A DNA stretch of 64,000 nucleotides, from NCBI GenBank assembly GCA_000934665.2, contig KZ538305.1, forward strand, positions 1-64,000, read 5' to 3'. Positions 4,011 to 26,190 of the stretch are shown one piece after another. This stretch comes from Catajapyx aquilonaris (taxonomy: Eukaryota). The translations under genes and the position numbers were made by a program. A model generated the notes under the pieces. It was not told the DNA's origin. It ran no database searches and worked only from the letters and a program-made list of their open reading frames with translations. Each line of letters opens with the position of its first letter. The stretch's first letter is position 1.

Positions 4011-4747
4011 ATTTTTCCATTCCTCTCGGGGGAGCCGGGGCAAGCTAGGCCATGAGATAAGGAGATGGAGGTAGACGTGGCCTTTTTTGCGAGATAAGCC
4101 CCGGAAGAGTGACCATGGGTTGTAAAATTTCATGCAAATGGCTTCAGTAAAAAAATAAAGCCTCATTCACCCCCTTCTATTCCCTTTTCAGTTCAACGAC
4201 CTTTTCGCTGTAACTGAAAAAATATTAATTTGCAAATATTGCAAATATGGTTGCGCTATGCTTTTAGGACAAACTTTTGTTGGAGGGGGAGAAACTGAAT
4301 TGCACAGGATAGAGCATAATACTTCATAATAATAAATAAATAAATAAATAAATAATAATTAGAGTATTTCCTCGAGCATTTTGGTTCATTGAGAATTTAT
4401 GAGTTGAAATTAGTAGATATTGGCAATTTCATCCTCATTATGCGGAGATATTGTTAATGTTAGTTTCGTTACCCGTCAGCAATGCACAGGGGTCATCATA
4501 CGCATCATGCGACCACTATGGGGCGTACATTGCAACACTGAATAAATTCAGAAGGGACAAGTTTAGGTAAGAGTGTATCGTCATGCGACTATTGTCACCA
4601 CTTTATTTTTCACATATAGTGGTAAGTTCATACATTTGTTTATCACTTAGTTGTGGATTTTCAACAACACGATGATTTTAAAGAAACCCGCCGATATACA
4701 GTAAGATAACGATTAAAATACGTATAGCATGAAAGCTACCGTGAGTA

Positions 4748-6781
<2,034 letters not shown>

Positions 6782-7942: not shown

Positions 7943-10900
7943 TTATGGCGATGGCATGCACTTGAGTCTTTCGAAAGCCGCCTTCTCCAGTGCCTCTCGA
8001 TGATTTGGGTGAGCGATTTGGATGAGGGCGTGTGCTCGCTGGCGAATGTTTTTGCCGAACAGGTATGCTATCCCATGCTCGGTCACCAAGTAGTGCACGT
8101 GAGCACGGGTGGTCACCACTCCGGCACCTGTCAAACGCACCAGTTATATTTTTTGTGGGGGAAAAAAATTGGATTCATGCAAACGCACCTATCTTGACTG
8201 TAGGGACGATTTTGGATTCACCCTTCTTGGTAGTAGATGGCAGGGCCAGAATCGGCTTCCCCTTTCCGTCCAGTGCCATTCCAGCACCACGGATGAAGTC
8301 AACCTGGCCTCCAAATCCGGAGTACATGAGAGTCCCGATTGAATCCGAGACCACCTGGCCGGTCAGGTCAACCTCGATACAGGAGTTGATTGCGGTCACC
8401 TTTGGGTTTCGAGCGATGTTTGGAGGATAGTTGACGTAATCGACCACAGCCATCACTGATCAGGAAATTTCAGCGTTTTATCAGTGAATCACGGAGCACT
8501 TCAAATTATTCTGGGGCACTTACTAACGAAAGGGTTGTTGTCGAGAAAGTCGTAGAGCTTCTGGGTGCCGACCGTGAAGCTGCTGACGATTTTTCCTGGG
8601 TGAAGCTTCTTGTAGTGGTTGGTGATGCAGCCTTTCTCCACCAGGTCCACCACCCCGTCGCTGAACATTTCCGAATGGATGCCCAGGTCCTTGTGGTTGC
8701 TCAGCGCGTTCAGAACCGCGTCCGGAATGGTGCCTATCCCTGCAGAATGGTAAGGTGTGTCATCCTGCAGACTAATGAGAAAAAAAGGCGAACTAACCCA
8801 TTTGCAAGGTGGCCCCGTTCTCGACAAGGTTCTCGGCGATGATGTGTCCGATGCGATCCTCCACCTCGCTGAGCGCCTTAACAGCGTGTGAGGACAATGG
8901 TGTGTCCACAGGGACCATGGCGTCCAGGTGGGACTTGTGGATGATTCCGTCCCCGAATGTCCTGGGCATCCTGGGGTTCACCTGGCCTATGATATGCTTG
9001 GCGCTCATGAGAGCAGATCGAGCGCAGTCCACGCTTGTTCCCAGGCTGCAGTACCCGTGCTTGTCTGGTGGCGTTACCTGGAACATTATGAAGAATTACC
9101 ATCCGGTGGCTGTATAGAACATTCGGTCAGCAACTTTTTTTTTTTTTTTGACGCAATGTGTGTTTTGCATAGAAGTGATTTCAGCTAAATTAGTGCGACT
9201 TAGATATCATTTGGCCATACTGAACATGCTACAATTAGAACATCTGTTATCAAAATGTTCATATATAGAAAATATCATTACTTTTCTATTTTTGGACGGA
9301 TGAATATATCCAGATGCAACCTGTGTGTTATCAGTAACTGCGAAGCACACAAAGCTTGTATAATTAGCTAGTGTATATCTGGTCAGCCTGGGGTTACTTG
9401 CCTGCTCGATTGTAAATACAGGTTGATTCGGTTAACTTTGGCAAAAATCACAGGCTGGGTAGAGGCCTCATATATAGGCAAGTATTTTGAGCTTCGTTAC
9501 CCATGTCCGGAGGGGGGGGGGGGGGNNNNNNNNNNNNNNNNNNNNCATTTCCGGACATGGGTACCGAAGCTCAAAATACTTCTCTATGGAGCCCCTCTAC
9601 CCACCCTGTGATTTTTGCCAAAGTTACCGGAATCACCCTGTATACTCACGTGTATGAGAGCCACATCCACCGGGATGATGTTCCTTGTGAACAGAAGGGG
9701 GATTTCGGAGAGAAAAATGGGTACGCAGTCTGCTCGTCCCTCCCTGACAGCCTGGCGAACATTTCCTCCCATGAAGAACGAGTTGGACCTAAAGATTTCT
9801 GTGGAAGTCGGCATTTTATTTTTCCAAGACAAGGGCGATTGCGGAGGAACCTCATGTGTTGAAAACCTTGCACTCACTTTCGTACTCAGGTTTGCTGTAG
9901 ATGGCGTCTCCTTCTGTGTGGATATGGCAGACTTGTACATTTTGCAGGTTGGCTTGTTGGCCATGCTTGGTCATGGCCTCGATCAGTGCTATTGGAGTTG
10001 CTGCTGCTCCATGAACAAACACGGTGTCGCCTGCATGGAAGAAAATGGTTTGAGGTACCACATCTCATTCATATACACAGCTACTTATTTTGGTGTGCAG
10101 AGAGACAATCTGATTCTGGCAGGGTCAAGGATAGGTAACACTTTTTTGGACTGTTGGCAAAGCGATAGCGTTACTTTGCATTGCGTGCGCCTGTGATGAT
10201 CTGGGTGTTTGCAAACATTTGCTAATAAGATAAAGTGATGTCTCTGTTTGCTTTGACCCCGAGAGTGCGTTGCCTCCTGTCAGCATAGAGAGTGATTGAT
10301 TCCTTTAATGATATAATAGTTCATAATGGTGTGACACGAGGGAAATTGCTTATAAACCGCGAGAGGGTGCTTCAAGTGACAGCTCGAGGACATCTGCAAA
10401 TCTGAGTAACCATTTTTTTCTCTCTTATTCGTGCATGTGGGAGTCACTTCGTATTAAAATGAAACTGTGGCTTCAGATTATCCTTTATGAAATTTGATGT
10501 CACCCCAGAGCACTTGAAAATATTGAGCAATAAAAATCGAATCTTATCTACGAGAACTCTGTGTACAAAAGGTATTGTAACCTGGTTTCTCGCAAGGCCT
10601 ACATGGAAATCGAGTTATCGGGAAATCCGAGACAAGGCTTAGACGTCATTTGATATCCAGGTGGGAAATACCAAAGTCACTTTGGGGCAGTCTTGCCTAG
10701 GAGATATAGCTTTCATGAGCGAAATTCCGCGCAGAAGCAGAACCGAGTGCCAAAATATCGATCCAGCAAACTCTGGTTTGCTCCGTTTGGATTTTTATAG
10801 CGACGAATAGAGCGAGACCCATTCAGTGCACGCTTAAAAGTAGACACGTCGTGTCACTGGAGTGCATAACCTCAATTTAGGGCTGCTGGAGAGGGCTATT

Positions 10901-14518: not shown

Positions 14519-15220
14519 CGGGGTCATCGAAAAAGAATGCGCCGATTTAAAAACCCTATAACTCGAAAACCTGTAGACATATCTAAATGATTTAAGTTTT
14601 GATATGCTAATGAAGATCTAAAGTTTTGGTCTTACTATAGTTTGTTTCGATGTGAGCTCCATTTGTCGCTTGAAAATGTAAATACGGTAATAGGTGTTGT
14701 GACTGACCTGTTCAGACATGTCTGGCGTTACCTGTGCAGTATTTCCCCGTAGGTGATGGAGATGCCGAATCTTTTCACCATACATGTACGAGTCGTGTCT
14801 CCACAAAAAAATCAATTGGGGTAAGACCTGGGCTTCTGGGAGGGCAAGGCATTGGGTAACTTCTCATTCTACACTTCTCACACTGGGAGGCTGAACAAAT
14901 GAAACTTCCTATACGGCAGGTTTGTTTCATGGATGGGGGCGACTTTTTATTAGAATCTTCAAGAACAATGTGTGTGGTGTAAATATCCATCATATCCAGC
15001 ACCTACGGATAGGATTACAACGGTAACTCCAGAAATGATTGAGCGGGCTTGGAACAAGACCGAATGCCACCTTTAACTCTGCCAAGCGCCAAATGAAGCT
15101 CACATTAAAACGAAATAAAGTGAGACCAAAACTTTAGACCTTTCTTAGCATTTCAAAACTTAAATCATTCAGATATGTCTGCAAGGTTTCGAGTTATAGG
15201 GGTTTAAAATAGGCGCATTC
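14519..15220. mobile_element. Decayed Tc1/mariner derivative with long inverted arms
   Basis: TA|CGGGGTCATCG left end. Inverted arms at about 14540-14755 and 15000-15220. The minus strand gives PPRSPGLTPIDFF..LWRH..HLRGNTAQVTPDM..ATNGAHIE (frameshifted DDD/E transposase C-terminus). The right terminus is cut off by the LINE fragment. Confidence 0.8.
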
Positions 15221-16617
15221 CCCCATTTGTCCACATCATTGACGTATACCCCTATAATCTTCCAAGTCAAACACTTGTCCTTAAAAACAATGAGAACTCC
15301 CTGTTCCTTTTCCGTCACTGATATTTTAAATCCCCTTCTCCATCCTACAACAATCCCACCTTTAGCTCTCCCCCACTTGCACTCTCTTGTAGCCCCTTTA
15401 CAATACCATTCCCATGATTGAGACAAACCCCACTTCCACTTATCAAAAACAATTTTTTCCATCCATGTCTCTTCTAAAATTACCAAATCAAAAACATTGA
15501 TATATTCCCAAAACTCAGTTCCCTTGCTAAGTAGACCTGCAATATTCCAAGATAGCAATTTAAAATCCTCACCCATAATCTTACTATTGCAGCCCTCTTT
15601 GAGCACCCCCCTACCATCATCTCTTCACAATACTCTTTCCCATCTTCTTCCTCCTCCAGTTACAGCACTCTCGCCTCTTCTCCGTCCACCCAACTGCAAC
15701 TCATCTCCAAGCAACATTCTCCCTCCTCCTCCTCCTCCTCCTCCTCCTCCTCCAACATTCTCTCCTCCTCTACATCCATCCAACTGTAGCTCCCCTTCAT
15801 GTTTCTTCCTGTCCAATACCACATCCGCTTTCTCTCCATCCCATCTATACCAAATTCCATCACATATTATCTTGTCCATTTTTACAGAGCAGGATTTCCC
15901 CGAGGCCCTCCACATTTTAGCCACCTGGAACAACTGTCTTCTCACCTCTCGGGTCTCCAAAGAAAAATCTTTATCCACATATACACTGCTTCCTTTCAAC
16001 CGAATCTTCTCCCGCATCATCTTCTCCCGCTCCTTCCCATCACTATCAAACTTACAAACAATCTTCCGATCTCTACCTGGGGTCTTTGGCCCAACTCGAT
16101 GAGCCCTGGAGATGGACTTGAGCACCCACCCCATCCTCTCCTTGACCATCTCTTTCAGCTTCTCCTCTGTCCTAGTCCAGTCCTCTCCCACCTCCTCTGG
16201 TATTCCAGAGATAACAAGATTATCCCTTCTACTTCGATTCTCCAAGTCCACCAATTTCTTCCAGACCACATCCCTCTCCTTTCTCACTCCTGAGACCTCA
16301 TTCCTAAGTTGGTCGACCTCCTGCTCCAGCTTTACCGCTCTCTGTTCCCATCGTTCTTCCATGTCATGCATCGACTTCTGCAGATGAGCCACCTCCCTGG
16401 ACATCCACTCATCGATCTTCCTGAAATCTGCAAACAGGCCCTCCATCTTCTCCATCACCTGAGCCATCATAGCTTTCAGCCCTCCTAAAGAACAGCTATC
16501 CTCTTCGTCACCTTCTCTACCATCAGAGCTGGTTTTTTGTTGCCTGCTACTCCCTGCCCCACCAGTTGCTCCAAGTTTGGCCTTGCTAGATATCTGACTT
16601 GCTATTCGATCAACCAT
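15221..16617 (-). mobile_element. Non-LTR retrotransposon (LINE) fragment: complete ORF1 (16617-15625) and N-terminal AP-endonuclease of ORF2 (about 15576-15221), 3'-truncated
   Basis: ORF1 (330 aa) has a coiled coil followed by DLENRSRRDNLVISGIPE...RAHRVG...IVCKF...VYVDKDFS..TR..RR.L, the L1-like RRM/CTD pattern. ORF2 reads LLSWNIAGL...DLVILEETW...GRAKGGIVV...IIGVYV (APE motifs). No RT domain is present. Confidence 0.9.
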
Positions 16618-16682
16618 GCCTCCACTCTCTTGGCAAAAAACATCTATTTTTGACTGGCCTACATCAACCCAATGGTATAGTA

Positions 16683-16911
16683 CAGTGGTTTCCCACCTTT
16701 TACCAACTGCGACCCACTAAACATGTTTCCATGAATGTGTGACCCCCCCGCCACAATCCCCCTCCCTCCGGCCCCTTCTACAACTGACCCATTTCCAGAA
16801 AACATACACTCTGTACGGCCGCAAAAATGGTTCAATTGACACAGAAATTGCAAAAAAAAGTTGAACAAAGGCTCGCGACCCTGCCGGCGACCCCCTGGTT
16901 GTAAACCACTG
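16683..16911. mobile_element. hAT (Charlie-like) MITE
   Basis: TIRs CAGTGGTTTCCCACC / GGTTGTAAACCACTG, internal GCGACCC motifs, and an 8-bp TSD GTATAGTA (16675-16682) / GTATAGTG (16912-16919). Confidence 0.85.
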
Positions 16912-18648: not shown

Positions 18649-21600
18649 TTAAGCGCCAATGTTAATTTTTTCAGCGACCTCAACGTCCACTCCTTTGGCC
18701 AAGCCTTTCCCCCTCATGCGGCCGAAATTCATGGAGCACCCGCGGAAGCAGGCCATAATGATGTCCAGGAAAGACGTATCGGAGTTGTACACTGGACAGA
18801 CGGGGGACTGGGACGTCCAGCTAAAGTTTCTGAAAGCAGCGAAAAATCAAGATTAGTCATAATTTAATACAAGGCCTGGTCTTCAGAAATGAACTATTCT
18901 GGCGGATCCTAACTTTAGGATGAAGGAGACCCCCACGGGCAGGGCGTAAGGACTGCTGTGCACCAGTTCTTCCATGGTTTCGCCAGAACTGGACTTCACC
19001 TTCCACATCTGTAGACCACGTTCTTCATCAGTTCCTACCGAACAGAATGCAATGTTATAATCCATACGATGCGACTTGAACGAAAAAGTGATTCCAAGTG
19101 AACCAAAAGAACAATGTTTTCAAAAACACAAAAGCGTTAATATGCAGAAAAAATGGCGGACAATATGCAGGAATGCTCGAAACACCTGCCTGGAACTGTG
19201 TTGTCCAAAATGATTGCCAGCAGGACCGACAAATCCGATGGAGAGGTCAAGATGTGGAAGGTCAGGTCGTCTAAGAACCACTGTCCTGTTGTGAGGTAAG
19301 CTTTTTGTGTCTTGTTCAACAGCATTTCCGGTAACGCCTGCGCACATAAGCAGTGAAGTAAAATACAAGTAAGCTTACCAGTTGGTAGATGGACTCGACG
19401 TGAACTCGAAATGAAAATATGAAAAGGACAGCTGAAGTAAATAAGTAACGGGCCCAGGAAAATTTACTAACCCATGCTTAGATTTAATCCTAATAATCCC
19501 CTGCAACATTACTACTCATTTATGGACCCTGCCTGCATACCAATTTTCAAGCACACAGAATCTTGCAGTTTAGTACTAACCATTGATATGGCCACGGTGA
19601 TTCCTATGATGGACCTGTTGCGCAGTGAATTCATGTCCAGGAAGTAAAAGTAGTAGAGTGCTGTGGAGAAGGTAGGAATAAGCAGAATAGTATTTGGACA
19701 CTTCAGGAGACTACTGACCTTGGGAAAGGTTGAGAATGAGGGTGACGCAGAAGATGGCGGTCAGCAGTGGGAATGGAATGGAGGTGAGGAAGTAGATAAT
19801 CTTGGGCGAGCAGCCTGAGAGCATAGTGAGTACGCCCACGGCGAAACCGAACCGACGGGCACCCAGCCCGGTCAAGGTGACTACAGGTCCCGAGATCTTG
19901 TAGGCCCCGATAGCCCCGATGCACCCGAAGAGCCCGCTGATGGCGGCTATCAGGTTGTACACCACGGCTGACCGGTTGATTGCATCTGCCGGGGGGTTCG
20001 GTATCCCCATGTAGGAGGCGGCCAGGTTCAGAGAAAAGGTGCTCTCGATGCAGTTGGAGATTGAGTTCAGGAACAACTTCCACATGGACCTCATACCCGG
20101 GAATATGGGCGAACCGAATGCTCCTGTGGGGGATACACGTGCGGAAGAGGATGAGTTAACACAGTGGTCCAAGCATTTGAGTAGGTCGTTATCAAAACCA
20201 GGCTACCTTCTTTCAATCGAACACTTAAAAAAAAAAAAAAAAAAAAAACAGCAGCAGCAGCAGCAATTTCAGATATAGTGAGTCTCTTCACAGCGCAGGT
20301 TACCTTGCCCAATGGGAATTGGACCCGAGGTGAAAACGTTCCATATGCAGCGTGTTCCCGAATTCGTCTGACAAAATGGTGGTAGGGGGGTGCGTATGGC
20401 GAAAAGGCATGGCATGGGTCCGAAAAGCCGGCGACGCTGCGTCTAGACAGTGTAGACATCGACGATGTGTATCCTTACAAGTATGGATACTCCCGTGCAT
20501 GCCTGCATTGCAGGTTGCCAGAATCAGGTGGTTGAGCAATGATCTGGTGGTGCGAGTGCCTGGCCCCGCAACCAGCAATGCAGGTATGTACGGGGCTATC
20601 CGTACTTGTCAGGATACACATCGTTGACGTCAATGTCATCGTCGACCTTTCGAACCCATGCCATTCTTCTTCCATACGCACCTCCTACCACCCGTATCAT
20701 TTTGGCAGACGAATTCGAGAACACGCTGTATTGGGAATACAAATTTAGCATTGAGTAACCAGGAATTAACACTTTTGAAAAAGTAAGGTACCCTGGTTTT
20801 GATAATGACCTACTCAATTTTGCTGGGAGCTGGTCAGGAAAGGATTTGATCATTGCCTGGAACAGGGAAACTTATTGTGGGTATGTCCTTCGAATCGTCT
20901 GCTGGAGGGCCAATAATATCTCCTGCTTGAGTGACGGTGTCTGTTGGGACAATCCAGCCACCAACGTTCCAAGTCAGGTATCCCAATGACGTTGTGATGA
21001 GTATCTAAACAATAATTAATTTTAATAATGTTGACCAAGATCAATACACTATTTGTACAGTGCTGGACATAATTATTAGCAGTCCCAGTTCCGCCAATGC
21101 CAAAAAACAAACATTTAGGGACTGCTAATATGTCCAGCACTGTAGTGTACATCATTTTTAGAATTGAGGCCGTGATTGAGTTACAACGTGCGGCGGAAGC
21201 GAAGTTTTTGACTCATCATTTATTAAGACTCCAAATATGGATTCTGTATTATTTTGAAGTTTGATGCCAATTATTCCAATGGGCTACACTTTGTAATCGG
21301 GAAGCTGCAAGTCAGAGCTACGACACATGATTAAATTCGGCCAAACTACTAAAAATGTGTGCAGTAACAACTACTGTTTAATGACAAGCAACGTAGTTGG
21401 TGTCAAAAATAATACAAAAGCAATCGGGGACAAGTATATTTCTGATCACCACGTATAATCCATGTCAGAACATAATCGGGCATATAAAATAATCAAGGCA
21501 CTTTACAACCACCAATGGCTGGTGTGCTGAGACAGAAATACAAATGTTCCCTTAACCATCACGCCTTGCTAGAGTGCTGGTGGTCATACAGCGGCAGAGT

Positions 21601-24600
21601 ACGTTTGTTTCAAACTGTTTCGACATACACGCAAGTGATGTTCGTTTCTGAATAAGTTCTTACTAACGCCATATCCCAAAGTAGGATGCTGTTACAGTAG
21701 TTTATTTCTGGCCGTAGTAAATAGGTTTCATGCACCCGAGAAGGAAGCGAGTTTGTTTATGCCAGCTGGTGGGCACAAGCGCAAATTAAATAAATGCCGG
21801 TAAAGTCCCTTTGCGGAGAAAGAATTTAACGTTGAAGAGAAGGAAAACGCTTTCGTAAAAACTGATTATGTAAACGCAGTTAGGGTGTTTCCTGTAACTC
21901 TGTAAAGACTTGCAGGAGTAATAGAGGAGACCACGACAAGTATTTTTGTCATATAGGAACCCATGTCCGGAAACGCCATCTAGAGGGGGTTCATAGACGA
22001 GGAACGGGTGCACTCAGACGCTTCACGCAGGAGGGGTAGGCGAGCGGACTGTTTTGTTGATAGATGGCGCGCAGTAGTTGCCAGGTTCGTTGTAAGCAAA
22101 CAACGACGCGATGAACCATAACCTGGAAACAACAGAACCGTTGTTTACTCTCTGCTCGTCTCCTAGGAGGCGGACTTCAGTTGCTAGATGGCTCTGCTGT
22201 TGCCAGGTTATGGCACATCGCATCGGTGTCTACTATCCGAGCGCCATCTATCAACAAAACAGTCCGCTCGCTAGCTAACGCCGCCGCCCGCCTGACGCGT
22301 CTGAGCGCACCCGTTCTTTGTCTATGAACCCCCTCTTGATGGCGTTTCCGGACACGGTTGACGGTTTCATATGTCAAATATGTTTGTCTTGGTCCCCTCT
22401 ATTACCCCTACAAGTTTTGTCGGTTGAATTCAGAAACTCCCTGTATAAATCCCCCTGACGAGGATATAGGAGGGTATAGGAGGAGGAGGAGGAGGATGGA
22501 AAAGATTTCGCACTTCCCAGCGTCACAGAGATCTCGGAGTTACACCGTTTGATTCCTTGCAAATCGAGTACATTTTAGTATGTCTTCTGGAAAATGTCGC
22601 TTATATTTCGTTGTTTGCGAGACATATTGAAATTTTTCGGACTGTTATTTATTTTCATTTGTTTTGGCGACGCACGGATAATCTGCACCCGGATAATCGG
22701 GAGTTCAGTGTAGTCCTACTCGAATAATCAAAATAGGTTGTAACGCTATAGTGAGGTACGTGGGGTTTGAGGACAGAGCGGTGAATTTATTACGGTTATA
22801 AATAAGCGTATTAAAGTAGAGCTGCCTTCAATGCCCCCATGTACCATTTAAAAAATCGTTACCGAAAACATGTAGAAGATTCGAACACGTCTGACACGAA
22901 ACCCTTCCTTGGGATGGGGAACCATCACTGGAATGTGGAAGTGGCCGAGTATGAAGGCAACGAATCCTAGTACGCCGATGAACCTGAAACAGCATTTAAA
23001 ATGTCGTGAATAAGCATACAATGAAGGCCTCCAAGTTGTAATATGATTATGATGGTGATGAGTGCAGCCGCAGCAATCAGCCTCTCCACAGAAAAAAAGC
23101 ATGTGGGATGAACCCTACTAAGAAACACAGAAGCAACAATCAAGGCCACATTTACTGTTGTCGTGACTGCCATTTGCAGGCTGAAATAATCTGTAACTTC
23201 TTCGTCTAACACTCTACACCATCATGTTGCACTGGGGCCTATATGAGTGTATCATTATCACCTTGTACTGTACGTATGTATGCCATTGCACGACGCCATA
23301 TTTGTCAATATGAACGTGAATCCGATACCAATTACAGTACAATATGGTTAATGCATATTTTGCGTTGAAATATCTGGACTCTAAAAGATATATAGATTAA
23401 AAGATAATGGGCTGTTCTTCCATAATAATTGCAAGTTGACAGAGACATGAATACATGATGTCTTACATGAACATGAAGTAGGTGTTGCTTCCGTCCGTCA
23501 TTTTCCCGATTTCACTCGAGGTTTTTGCTGAATGTATGATTAGAAGAAGCGACAACACCAGTGGAGAGAAGGCCTTCTGAAGCAAGCCCACCAGACCTGC
23601 AATAGAAGTGATGAATATTAACAACCAATACAACGCTCCGATTTGCTATTTTGTCGCCAACGGCTCGTGGCGCCACCAGTACGACACCATTAATGTCTAG
23701 CACTAGACGCACATTTCTCGGTCAATTTACCCCCCTTCCCTTCCCGATTTTATTAGTGCTTGTTTTCCTCTTGCAAGCAATGTTTTATCTCTTCAATTCC
23801 CATTGAGCCTGTTTATCTAAATGCTCAAAGCTCGATAAACTGTTCAAAGCTACAGACCGTCTCATCACGTGACCCTTGTTCGGATTCAATTCATGAAAAT
23901 GGGTTTCTTTCATGAAAATAACTAAGAAATGCCAATATTCTCGCTGAGACTTGAAACCCCCCGAACATAATGCACTGACGCAACTTCCCACTAATATATC
24001 TTGACTCTTCCGTGGATCTGTTGCTATCTGGTAACAGAAAGTTTCTAATTCATCTGACATAACTGATAACATAATGACAAGAAGGCATCTACCACCCCAC
24101 AATACGCGACTTCATTTTTGCATCATGTCGCTGCTGTTCCCGTGGAATTACCTTTAACGCAGTCCGTAAGGGGCCCTATCCTCGGCGAGAAAAACACATG
24201 ATGTAGCCTAATATAAAACAAGATTGCCAAATCACGCGAGCGTAATAATTCAAGTATGCCTTTTCTCATTAATTTTGGGCAGCGGCAATGAGGCTGACAA
24301 CATTCTACGTCATTATTGTCGGATTTGAATCGCATAGTGTCGTATACATGTTGTCATTGATGTGACGTTGGACATTACGTCCGAAATACGGAGTTCTTCA
24401 TTCTGACATGCACCTAATATAATTTTAACTCAAACGATCCGGTTGGGTGATTTATCCAGTGACGTCATCGTCAACCCAAAATTCGACTCAACTACGCAGA
24501 ACCGATTATTATTTGGTCAGGCGTTTAAAGCCGTTAAAAGTTTAAACCAACTGTTTTTCGAGTGTATACCTAGGACTCCCCAGATGAAGCGCATGATTCC

Positions 24601-25627
24601 GATGGATATCACGACTCCTTGCCAGATGTTCATGCGGTGTCTGAATCGAGACTCGGCGATGTGATGAAGCGTGGGGTTCAACCTCAGGGTGTCACAGGGG
24701 GTGGCATTGAAAGGGCCGTCGAGTGATTCAGCCTCGGCCAGCACCACCTGATTGTTGCCACCCATTTCGCCGAGGAGCGGCCCTAATACGACAGGCAACC
24801 TGCATGGACCAAATTCACGTCGAAATATTTTGCTAGTAAGCTTATATACAGCACTGTACTTGTGACGGCGGCGATCCACTCACCTGCTTCCGATGAAGTT
24901 GTCCACCAGCATCGCGAATCCCGAGAATAAGAACGTAGAGGATGTGTATTGCATCATAGTGGTGATATCAGGAGGACACATGAACTTATTGATGAGGCTG
25001 AACACAACATTATAAGTCATGGCACTAACGATAAAGCCCTGAAATAACCAGGCAATAAACATCATGTTAATATAACCGCGTCATTACAAAGTGAGTGAAG
25101 TCGATTCACCTGAAATCCCGCGAGGAGCGTGAAGATAAATGATGCAGAGTCCTCAAAGTTGTAGAGAAGAAATCTTTTCTGTCCATCGATGAGATAAGCC
25201 GCTCGTGCACTCTTGTGGGTGTCAACGCTCGTAATGGATCTCTGGTCCGCCTAACAGGTTCGGGTGAAGAAACATGTGTCGGTAATCATCATCACGCAAT
25301 GGAATCTTGATTGGTACCAATCAAGATTCCAGAATTAGTTCATAAGTGACAGAAGCGAGACTTTTAAGAGCAAGGAAGAGACTTGTACTGTGTTGTGATT
25401 ATTATAATAAGCCTGTGTGTTAGCATTAGTCCAAACTTTTTCAGATGCGTGTTTGTTATTTTAACAAATGAAGGCAGTTCTTAGGATTTAAGTGATTTAT
25501 TCTACTCCCGGTAGCAATTAACACTTGGTGTCTGGTTATTGCTTCGTAAGCTACGCTGCTTTATTCCAGAAGGATACTGATGTATCCAGTGACTTACAGA
25601 ATCTTCGGATACCACAGACTTCCTCAT
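18649..25627 (-). CDS. Divergent SLC23 / nucleobase-ascorbate transporter (NAT/NCS2) family protein, 629 aa; exons 25627-25598, 25250-25110, 25038-24884, 24799-24570, 23596-23467, 22983-22863, 21004-20857, 20123-19719, 19660-19581, 19337-19190, 19034-18914, 18829-18649
   Basis: Phase-consistent open 1890-nt CDS that requires two GC-AG introns. Family motifs appear in order: LLYNFED..LAGFQ, STFLFSG..GSRLPVVLG, RMNIWQG, FSPLVL, IES..PPADAINR, SIPFPL, LDMNSLRN, LAIILDNTVPGTDEERGL..W, YALPVG, WTSQSPVCP. The first (10-aa) exon is the least certain. Confidence 0.88.
20162..20833. mobile_element. Fold-back (palindromic) MITE filling most of SLC23 intron 7
   Basis: Outer arms at about 20162-20216 and 20775-20833 (TTGAGTAGGTCRTTATCAAAACCAGG). 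Inner arms at about 20348-20518 and 20568-20728. The left end begins CAGTGG (Tc1-like). Confidence 0.75.
21881..22443. mobile_element. Tc1/mariner-type fold-back MITE in SLC23 intron 6
   Basis: Ends TAGGGTGTTTC...GAAACTCCCTG|TA. About 200-bp imperfect inverted arms, e.g. GTCCGGAAACGCCATC / GATGGCGTTTCCGGAC and GCGAGCGGACTGTTTTGTTGATAGATGGCGC / GCGCCATCTATCAACAAAACAGTCCGCTCGC. Confidence 0.8.
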
Positions 25628-26080: not shown

Positions 26081-26190
26081 TTTGATATCCCGTGCTGGAG
26101 CACGGTCAGGATCGCCGGCCCCGGGACTCGAACCCAGGACCTCCCGTTTAGCAGTCGGCCGTCTTATCCACTCCACCAACCTGCTTCGTT
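26018..26190 (-). mobile_element. tRNA-derived SINE with (AAAT)n tail
   Basis: Minus strand has an A-box-like TGGTGGAGTGG, a B-box GGTTCGAGTCC, a short body and an (AAAT)n tail. Exact 14-bp TSD ATTTCCTTTAAAAT at 26004-26017 and 26191-26204. Confidence 0.88.

Follow-up and report, generated by a model that had tools for sequence, protein, structure and literature searches.

The window, a stretch of 64,000 nucleotides of Catajapyx aquilonaris contig KZ538305.1, contains an SLC23 gene on the minus strand (25627–18649), with 12 exons and 1890 nt encoding 629 amino acids (Table 1). The original prediction of an intact, uninterrupted 12-exon frame held: the 629 codons include no internal stop and are followed by one terminal stop. 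Introns 7 and 10, on which the gene model depends, are GC-AG, with donors CAG/GCAATG at 20856 and CAG/GCAGGT at 19189; these two GC donors are absent from that prediction. We checked the splice structure independently with a spliced alignment, using a profile built from 16 canonical database proteins only and without supplying the gene model. Introns 2–10 (nine junctions) were reproduced base for base, including both GC donors. Furthermore, introns 2–11 have positions and phases common to 6–14 of the 14 paralogues, the junctions of introns 7 and 10 being common to 6 and 8 of them, respectively. The paralogue models stop short of exon 1 (10 codons) and intron 1, which have no homology support. 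Among 17 GT sites examined as replacement donors for exon 7, two in-phase, intra-exonic ones (20961 and 20871) were rejected because they would remove conserved loop residues and because the canonical-profile alignment picked the GC site; for exon 10, none of 17 sites gave an open frame longer than 546 residues. A scan of the assembly for another near-identical exon 8 found none.

Table 1. Exons and pocket residues of the window SLC23 gene.
Feature	Positions	Strand	Basis
Exon 1: ATG, 10 codons, GT donor, phase 0	25598..25627	-	Start context and donor plausible
Exon 2: N-terminal tail, TM1 start; last residue Q57	25110..25250	-	Gene model, profile alignment
Exon 3: first residue G58 (canonical His); TM1-TM2	24884..25038	-	Gene model, profile alignment
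Exon 4: TM3 (P116, L118 at SVCT1 Na2 Ser/Phe positions), EL2 loop, TM4	24570..24799	-	Gene model, profile alignment
Exon 5: TM5, gate domain	23467..23596	-	Gene model, profile alignment
Exon 6: TM6	22863..22983	-	Gene model, profile alignment
Exon 7: TM7 and loop, then GC-AG intron	20857..21004	-	Gene model, profile alignment, paralogue junctions
Exon 8: core TM8-TM11, remodelled pocket inside	19719..20123	-	Alignment to SVCT1/UapA, Pfam, AlphaFold fragment
E345, kept TM8 Glu (mouse SVCT1 E341, UapA E356)	20044..20046	-	Alignment
S349 at Na1-binding TM8 Asp (mouse SVCT1 D345); small residue in 5/5 clade genes	20032..20034	-	Alignment
Y393, kept stacking aromatic of nucleobase NATs (UapA F406)	19900..19902	-	Alignment
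K394 at Na1-binding TM10 Ser (mouse S390, human S383; UapA A407); Lys/Arg in 5/5 clade genes	19897..19899	-	Alignment
NAT signature region 395-404: I, S, P for Q/E/P, N, G; T403, G404 kept	19867..19896	-	Alignment
Exon 9: TM12	19581..19660	-	Gene model, profile alignment
Exon 10: TM13-TM14, then GC-AG intron	19190..19337	-	Gene model, profile alignment, paralogue junctions
Exon 11: cytosolic tail, strongly conserved in clade	18914..19034	-	Gene model, clade comparison
Exon 12: tail end and TAA stop	18649..18829	-	Gene model, clade comparison

Judged by its Pfam match, full-length homology and common gene structure, the gene is a member of SLC23/NAT (PF00860) by descent. Exon 8 was the only one of eight exon pieces scanned to match PF00860 (Xan_ur_permease), scoring 38.5 bits where the curated threshold is 27 (E 7.4e-10). 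BLASTP aligned residues 2–584 with P0005 (E 1e-42), and identity to the best canonical database proteins was about 22–26% over the full length. The best PDB matches were to SVCT1 (7ytw, 8jew; E 1e-6, and E 4e-22 in the profile search), and profile matches to UapA and UraA ranged from E 3e-7 to 1e-5. The AlphaFold model of exon 8 alone (134 aa) had a pLDDT of 84, and its structural similarity to SVCT1 was weak, both in Foldseek (top row, E 3.4) and in VIA (Z 4.4–4.7, rmsd about 5, 132 residues aligned). The protein has PF00860 in common with SVCT1 (SLC23A1) and SVCT4/SNBT1-type transporters, and the gene shares intron positions with the canonical genes of this genome.

Motif registers come from gap-free alignments across TM8 and TM10 with SVCT1 (mouse and human) and UapA. 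The three motif changes called in the original prediction were borne out: TM1 Gln-His reads Q57-G58; TM8 ESIGD reads ESTFS (345–349), keeping E345 and replacing Gly and Asp with F348 and S349; and in the TM10 signature [Q/E/P]-N-x-G-x4-T-[G/R/K] the Q/E/P, N and G positions have become I395, S396 and P398, so that only T403 and G404 fit. By the motifs that PMC5972032 sets for canonical NATs, the protein is non-canonical. A realignment bringing back the canonical signature was rejected because the stretch from TM9 to the Arg-Arg anchor is gap-free. The accompanying claim that the substrate-binding residues are nearly all replaced was too strong, as four of nine scored TM8/TM10 positions (E345, Y393, T403 and G404) are kept, in addition to Q57. 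The broader proposal of a conserved-fold paralogue with altered chemistry thus stands as regards an intact gene under purifying selection with changed ion and substrate chemistry, but not as regards near-total residue loss.

The losses are patterned. The protein keeps the TM8 Glu, TM1 Gln and TM10 Thr of SVCT1 and SVCT4/SNBT1-type transporters, the TM10 aromatic of nucleobase-type SLC23 members, and, in comparison with Aspergillus UapA and Escherichia coli UraA, the equivalents of UapA E356 and F406; the TM8 Glu and stacking aromatic contact the nucleobase in UapA (PMC3405029, PMC5972032). Unlike SVCT1, it lacks the TM1 His, the TM8 Gly-Asp, the Q/E/P-Asn-Gly of the signature and the TM3 Phe, and carries Lys at the Na1 Ser; unlike UapA, it has lost the equivalents of Q408, N409, G411, H86 and D360, and has Lys for A407. 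UapA pairs H86 with N409 and Q85 with T416 (PMC3405029). On alignment, both partners of the His-Asn pair have been replaced (G58/S396), and the Q57-T403 pair is retained along with the TM8 Glu and TM10 aromatic.

In human SVCT1, Na1 is bound by the side chains of Glu334, Asp338 and Ser383, and Na2 by Phe112 and Ser110 (PMC11219872); in mouse SVCT1, E341A, D345A and S390A each abolish transport (PMC10011568). As read from the aligned residues, both SVCT1-type Na+ sites are dismantled in the window protein, Na1 by Ser349 and Lys394 and Na2 by Pro116/Leu118. In the AlphaFold fragment, K394 lies in the unwound stretch directly before the TM10 half-helix (local pLDDT about 70), which in SVCT1 is occupied by the TM10 Ser (PMC10011568). 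In substrate-free SVCT1, the TM10 side chain at this position touches the TM8 acids directly.

We modelled 15 SLC23 genes in the genome, three fully canonical and 12 eroded; therefore, erosion alone is common in this genome. In a quick tree with these paralogues, a check that the original prediction had suggested, the window gene fell into a five-gene clade (SH-aLRT 100) whose measured gene pairs are 30–46% identical. The original prediction is silent on this clade, the 15 paralogues and the patterned losses. Purifying selection on the clade genes is supported: omega, a whole-clade average rather than a measure of the recent past, was 0.21–0.24 within the clade and 0.16–0.17 among the four genes at C61:128–145k, with paralogue NG86 values close to saturation (dS 1.4–1.8, dN about 0.8). 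The best explanation is that the clade is old and part of a lineage-specific expansion, with canonical nucleobase/Na+ symporters retained at other loci.

Position 394 is Lys or Arg in all five clade genes and in none of the 10 other paralogues; the single basic residue among the 150 best database matches occurred in a fragment that diverges from the family exactly there, and is an artefact. Asp at 349 is missing from all five clade genes, whereas 131 of the 150 best database matches have it. In other words, two of the three SVCT1 Na1 side-chain ligands have changed jointly across the clade (a small residue replaces Asp, and Lys/Arg replaces the TM10 Ser). Both positions belong to a set of 10, out of 551 gap-free clade columns, at which the clade keeps a single residue class that is rare across the family. 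Additionally, the window protein has 16 Lys/Arg residues at columns rarely basic in the family, and only that at 394 is basic in all five genes. The signature positions adjoining 394 vary freely across the clade. The basic residue is common to the five genes by descent, that is, by one gain rather than five.

We searched for orthologues of the clade. None was found at E 0.001 among 673 candidates scored, and none of the best 150 of 1529 matches of a clade profile to 1.84 billion representatives had the clade features. Scoring 8000 candidates gave six matches, of which the five inspected were canonical decapod-type proteins, and a further search of 8000 gave one match, of microbial type. In a leave-one-out control, the omitted clade member ranked first in four of five trials and fourth in the other among 150 matches, indicating that a clade member present in the library should have been among the matches listed. 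A TM10 of S-x-P-N type without TM8 acids occurs in database proteins such as P0052 and P0057; these fell outside the clade in the tree, so the window clade has a separate origin. Divergent NAT branches without canonical motifs are already known, namely SVCT3 (SLC23A3) and fungal UapD-like proteins (PMC5972032). SVCT3 likewise lacks the TM8 motif, but its TM1 motif is intact and its TM10 motif resembles that of SVCT1 (PMC5972032); the clade has lost both of these, neither being present in the window protein, and has gained a basic residue. In titles and abstract openings, with few subscription journals covered, we found neither this clade nor Lys/Arg rewiring of the SLC23 Na1 site.

With roughly even confidence, we read the window protein as an intact, selected, non-canonical NAT-fold elevator-type carrier that would be Na+-independent, with an altered substrate and a tethered amine in place of Na+. 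Of the three roles originally offered, the patterned losses together with the gain of Lys/Arg point toward a putative uncoupled transporter with an altered substrate more than toward a sensor or regulatory subunit. The Lys394 amine may reach the former Na1 position beside E345 and take the place of the cation, the role that Arg730 has in AE1/Band 3 (SLC4A1), a Na+-independent exchanger with the 7+7 elevator fold of SLC23s. NDCBE binds Na+ between TM8 and TM10 via Asp800, Thr804 and Thr847, NBCe1 is of the same fold, and Arg730 of AE1 makes this Na+ unnecessary (PMC8478935); the Na1 binding mode of SVCT1 has been described as similar to that of NDCBE (PMC11219872). AE1 nevertheless belongs to another sequence family (the core exon of the window gene matches PF00860 only, and SLC23 structures, which places it outside SLC4 by sequence), and by our reading of PMC8478935 Arg730 follows the Na+-binding TM10 Thr by two residues, which makes the parallel a mechanistic analogy at a neighboring position rather than an identical one. 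The solute would then move without Na+, downhill or by exchange. A flat anion such as urate or another oxypurine is a low-confidence guess, made because E345 and Y393 remain and the Gln/Glu responsible for recognizing the purine edge has been lost. Tentatively, and at less than even confidence, the clade may be a natural, long-conserved SLC23 lineage in which Lys/Arg replaced the coupling Na+ and converted a Na+/nucleobase symporter to an anion carrier or exchanger that does not depend on Na+, independently repeating within SLC23 the switch between NDCBE and AE1. Several points weigh against the tethered-amine reading: loss of the TM8 Asp need not abolish coupling, a K394-E345 salt bridge could equally lock the pocket, and pocket charge differs among the clade genes, as position 345 is E, E, D, T and Y (acidic in three of five). 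The single gain of the basic residue and the long terminal branch of the window gene likewise count against it.

All characterized NATs in the literature surveyed are Na+ or H+ symporters. How they bind the coupling ion is still debated, for UapA D360, for PurT D276 (which we take to be the same TM8 Asp as in the SVCT1 and window column) and for two SVCT1 Na2 positions. A clade without this Asp and with Lys/Arg at an Na1 ligand, beside canonical paralogues in one genome, offers a ready comparison for whether a tethered amine uncouples the SLC23 fold, as proposed for AE1; if it does, this would provide a two-residue recipe for probing the gain and loss of ion coupling in the SLC4/23/26 fold. 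Twelve rewritten pockets in a 15-gene set also hint at animal SLC23 solutes beyond nucleobases and vitamin C. If proton-coupled or inactive, the window protein would be another divergent paralogue like SVCT3.

The protein might still be an ion-coupled symporter, using H+ via E345 or a different site for an ion; its substrate would then be changed or broader, and K394 would tune the E345 pKa or touch the substrate. We consider this unlikely, if well short of negligible. E345 is kept, UapA D360A remains proton-dependent at low transport, UapA binds substrate at the K394-equivalent position through a backbone NH and tolerates replacement there, and the introduction of PMC10438392 describes invertebrate NATs as proton-driven. 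However, two clade members without an acid at either TM8 position (T/T and Y/A) retain the basic residue, and neutralizing the TM8 Asp of PurT (D276A/N) keeps purine binding but ends gradient-driven, proton-coupled uptake (PMC10438392). A non-transporting paralogue, for example a regulatory dimer partner, sensor or scaffold with its pocket plugged by a K394-E345 salt bridge, seems doubtful. SLC23s are obligate dimers, so a partner role is possible, Q408P or Asn/His changes cripple UapA, and the cytosolic tail shows strong conservation specific to the clade; yet clade-wide constraint at 393, 394, 349 and 397 fits a binding site in use, five long-diverged genes have been retained, and hypoxanthine transport has since been reported, as cited in PMC13265694, for the motif-poor SVCT3, long considered inactive.

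Recent inactivation or lack of expression, with a lesion yet to accumulate, appears improbable. The window gene has the longest terminal branch of the clade (1.43), its omega is the clade average noted above, and it has two GC donors, but such donors also occur in the paralogue models C3493 and C61:133k, GC3 is 0.65 against an intron GC of 0.42, and in substitution-only simulations of neutral decay the frame and splice sites stayed intact in 55 of 1000 runs at 0.03 substitutions/site and in none of 1000 at 0.1. Least probable by our estimate is that the protein works, despite its substitutions, as a conventional Na+-coupled transporter of nucleobases or ascorbate: drift in the motifs is frequent among animal SLC23s, all nine positions being kept in only 51 of the 145 scored database matches, but just one of the 145 keeps as few as the window gene (4/9) and none fewer, single mutations at mouse D345 or S390 suffice to abolish SVCT1 transport, and the three fully canonical genes persist in the genome.

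We modeled the SLC23 gene of the window as 12 exons joining into 1890 bases, or 629 codons with a single terminal stop, which bears out the uninterrupted frame of the original prediction. Introns 7 and 10 are GC-AG, a feature that had gone unmentioned, and the other nine are GT-AG. In a model-blind check, a purpose-written spliced aligner, supplied with a profile built from 16 canonical SLC23 proteins of the database, recovered introns 2–10 exactly, including both GC donors, and the position and phase of introns 2–11 were common to 6 to 14 of 14 paralogues, two of whose models also contain GC donors. Exon 1 (10 codons) has only sequence context as its basis. Exon 8 matched PF00860 above the curated cut-off, as well as mouse and human SVCT1 in PDB, and the whole protein is 22–26% identical to canonical animal SLC23s across an alignment of about 580 residues. 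Modeled by itself with AlphaFold (pLDDT 84, pTM 0.64, 84 sequences), exon 8 is predicted to form TM9 after a long TM8, and then an unwound stretch that precedes a short TM10 half-helix; in fold searches with this single-exon fragment, SVCT1 ranked first with a weak match. At the sequence level, the gene is real and intact, and is an SLC23 by descent.

The genome contained at least 15 SLC23 genes by genome searches and spliced modeling, with no internal stops in the modeled parts, some models being incomplete at their ends. A quick IQ-TREE tree of 15 genome SLC23s and 34 of 52 full-length database proteins (two were excluded for aberrant N-termini and the remainder to limit run time) resolved the genomic genes into three groups, each with an SH-aLRT of 100. 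The window gene falls in clade A with paralogues on contigs C1373, C327, C3493, and C61 (about 60k); these five retain 1–5 of nine TM8/TM10 motif positions, and the closest relative of the window gene shares 33% identity with it. A profile from the five sequences also found UapA and UraA. Among four tandem genes on C61 (128–145k), the second (about 133k) is the one with 5/9 positions, and its model places a GC donor at the junction of window intron 10. Six intron-poor genes retain 2–5 of nine positions and mirror the window gene: TM8 Asp is retained in five of the six, whereas TM8 Glu is replaced by Asn or Met in all six.

Coordinates of the window gene, features around it, and related SLC23 genes (window positions unless a contig is named)
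Feature	Position	Strand	Description
Window SLC23 gene	25627-18649	-	12 exons
Frame	4678-5064	-	presumably aspartic protease (cathepsin D-like)
Frame	8501-9970	-	presumably acetyl-CoA hydrolase/CoA-transferase
Frame	15169-16716	-	presumably LINE-type ORF1/endonuclease remnant
Q453 codon	about 19720-19722	-	end of exon 8
Intron 7 element	20177-20817		nested fold-back, most of the intron
Intron 6 element	21905-22418		different fold-back; probably another MITE
Upstream element	26098-26165		short tRNA-like stretch after (ATTT)n run; resembles a SINE on visual inspection
Four tandem canonical-type SLC23 genes	G000:C61:127000-148000 (L039-L041)		three with 9/9 motif positions, one with 5/9
Six intron-poor SLC23 genes	G000:C61:46000-57500, C1014:17000-21000, C2718:700-13000 (L037, L038, L042, L045, L046)		3-6 introns in models

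Residue register was set by gap-free alignments. The substrate-binding residues had been described as nearly all replaced, and the losses stand for the TM1 His (G58), the TM8 Gly and Asp (F348, S349), and the Q/E/P, Asn, and Gly of the signature (I395, S396, P398), to which the TM3 Phe (L118) is added; however, Q57, E345, Y393, T403, and G404 are retained, leaving four of nine TM8/TM10 positions. By its sequence, the predicted protein departs from the canonical NAT on all three motif criteria of PMC5972032. The retained E345 and Y393 matter because, as reported, two main contacts bind the nucleobase, one of them the TM8 Glu, and the TM10 aromatic stacks on the ring (PMC5972032). Compared with UapA, in which H86–N409 and Q85–T416 are described as pairs (PMC3405029), the former is gone on both sides, whereas the latter is retained on both. 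In TM11, Q453 occupies a column with Gln in 5/5 clade A genes and 0/52 database proteins, and may provide a new contact in the pocket or in packing.

In human SVCT1, Na1 is reported to be coordinated by Glu334, Asp338, and Ser383 through their side chains, and Na2 by Phe112 and Ser110 (PMC11219872); in mouse SVCT1, E341A, D345A, and S390A each kill transport (PMC10011568). The window counterparts are E345, S349, and K394, and L118 and P116, respectively. All five clade A genes encode Lys or Arg at residue 394, compared with none of 10 other paralogues and one of 150 database matches (the best 150 of 1529); this sole match, P0136, is a fragment whose sequence departs from the family at that point. 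Residue 349 is Ser, Ala, or Thr throughout clade A, and Asp in 131 of the same best 150 of 1529. Of the 551 gap-free columns of the clade, just 10 combine class invariance in clade A with rarity in the family, and these include 349, 394, and 397, the last in the first turn of TM10 and the exception among former signature positions 395–398, which otherwise vary. Furthermore, among 16 window Lys/Arg at columns rarely basic in the family, only 394 is basic throughout the clade. Since the five genes have the change by descent, it represents one gain kept over long branches rather than five events. The original prediction included the residue losses but not this pattern: the alignments show the Na+ ligands gone and a basic side chain conserved clade-wide at one ligand position.

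We give about even chances to a Na+-independent carrier, in which the K394 amine would take the place of Na1 beside E345, and neither substrate binding nor the elevator stroke would then need Na+. A precedent exists in the same fold: Na+-independent AE1 has Arg730 at this site, and NDCBE, for lack of that residue, reportedly depends on a Na+ coordinated by Asp800, Thr804, and Thr847 (PMC8478935); the SVCT1 Na1 site is likened to that of NDCBE (PMC11219872). AE1 has the same fold, but by our own reading Arg730 lies two residues downstream of the K394 equivalent, so the parallel is an analogy. Given the retained E345 and Y393, our guess for the substrate is a flat anion, e.g., urate or another oxypurine. 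Several observations count against the Na+-independent carrier. The E345 position is acidic in only three of five clade A genes, and UapA D360A is reported to keep low, proton-dependent transport (PMC3405029). In PurT D276A/N, purine binding reportedly persists and proton-coupled uptake is lost (PMC10438392), an outcome consistent with uncoupling but also with a carrier that no longer works. The TM10 side chain at the K394 position touches the TM8 acids directly in substrate-free SVCT1, so K394–E345 could instead be a lock. Among the rival readings, a proton-coupled carrier with a changed substrate seems unlikely, and a non-transporting partner or sensor is somewhat less likely still. Codon models gave omega values of 0.21–0.24 for clade A, 0.24–0.28 for the six intron-poor genes, and 0.16–0.17 for the four C61 neighbors, all rough because synonymous sites are near saturation. 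GC3 of the window gene is 0.65 against 0.42 GC in its introns, and in 7 of 1000 simulations frame and splice sites stayed intact when neutral substitutions reached 0.05 per site. The gene is not an old pseudogene, and a very recent one is highly improbable. Least credible is an ordinary function: 145 of the best 150 of 1529 database matches were scorable, with 9/9 in 51, five in 11, four in one, and fewer in none, which puts the window gene at the extreme of a family in which drift is frequent.

Non-canonical NAT branches (SVCT3, UapD-like) and lineage expansions (6–14 NATs in Caenorhabditis) are already known (PMC5972032), hypoxanthine transport by SVCT3 has since been described (as cited in PMC13265694), and bivalves are described with up to 10 SLC23s, long-branch sequences having been removed before tree building (PMC9233358). 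Titles and the openings of abstracts revealed no publication that describes a basic residue occupying the Na1 site of an SLC23; supplementary alignments could contain such sequences. Sequence and profile database searches, the best 150 of 1529 matches among them, yielded no clade A orthologue in other organisms, and a leave-one-out control indicates that any clade member in the database should have appeared among the matches listed. A C-terminal search matched decapod proteins at 31–37% identity.

Within intron 7, the fold-back has arms 79–94% complementary, and its inner 400 bases are a MITE-like dispersed repeat with matches at 65–84% on dozens of contigs; in the intron 6 element, one arm pair of 31 bases matches perfectly and another, of 74 bases, does so at 88%. 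Finally, the cytosolic tail of clade A (residues 530–590, exons 11–12) is the best conserved part, above the transmembrane core, at about 47–58% identity in tblastn pieces.
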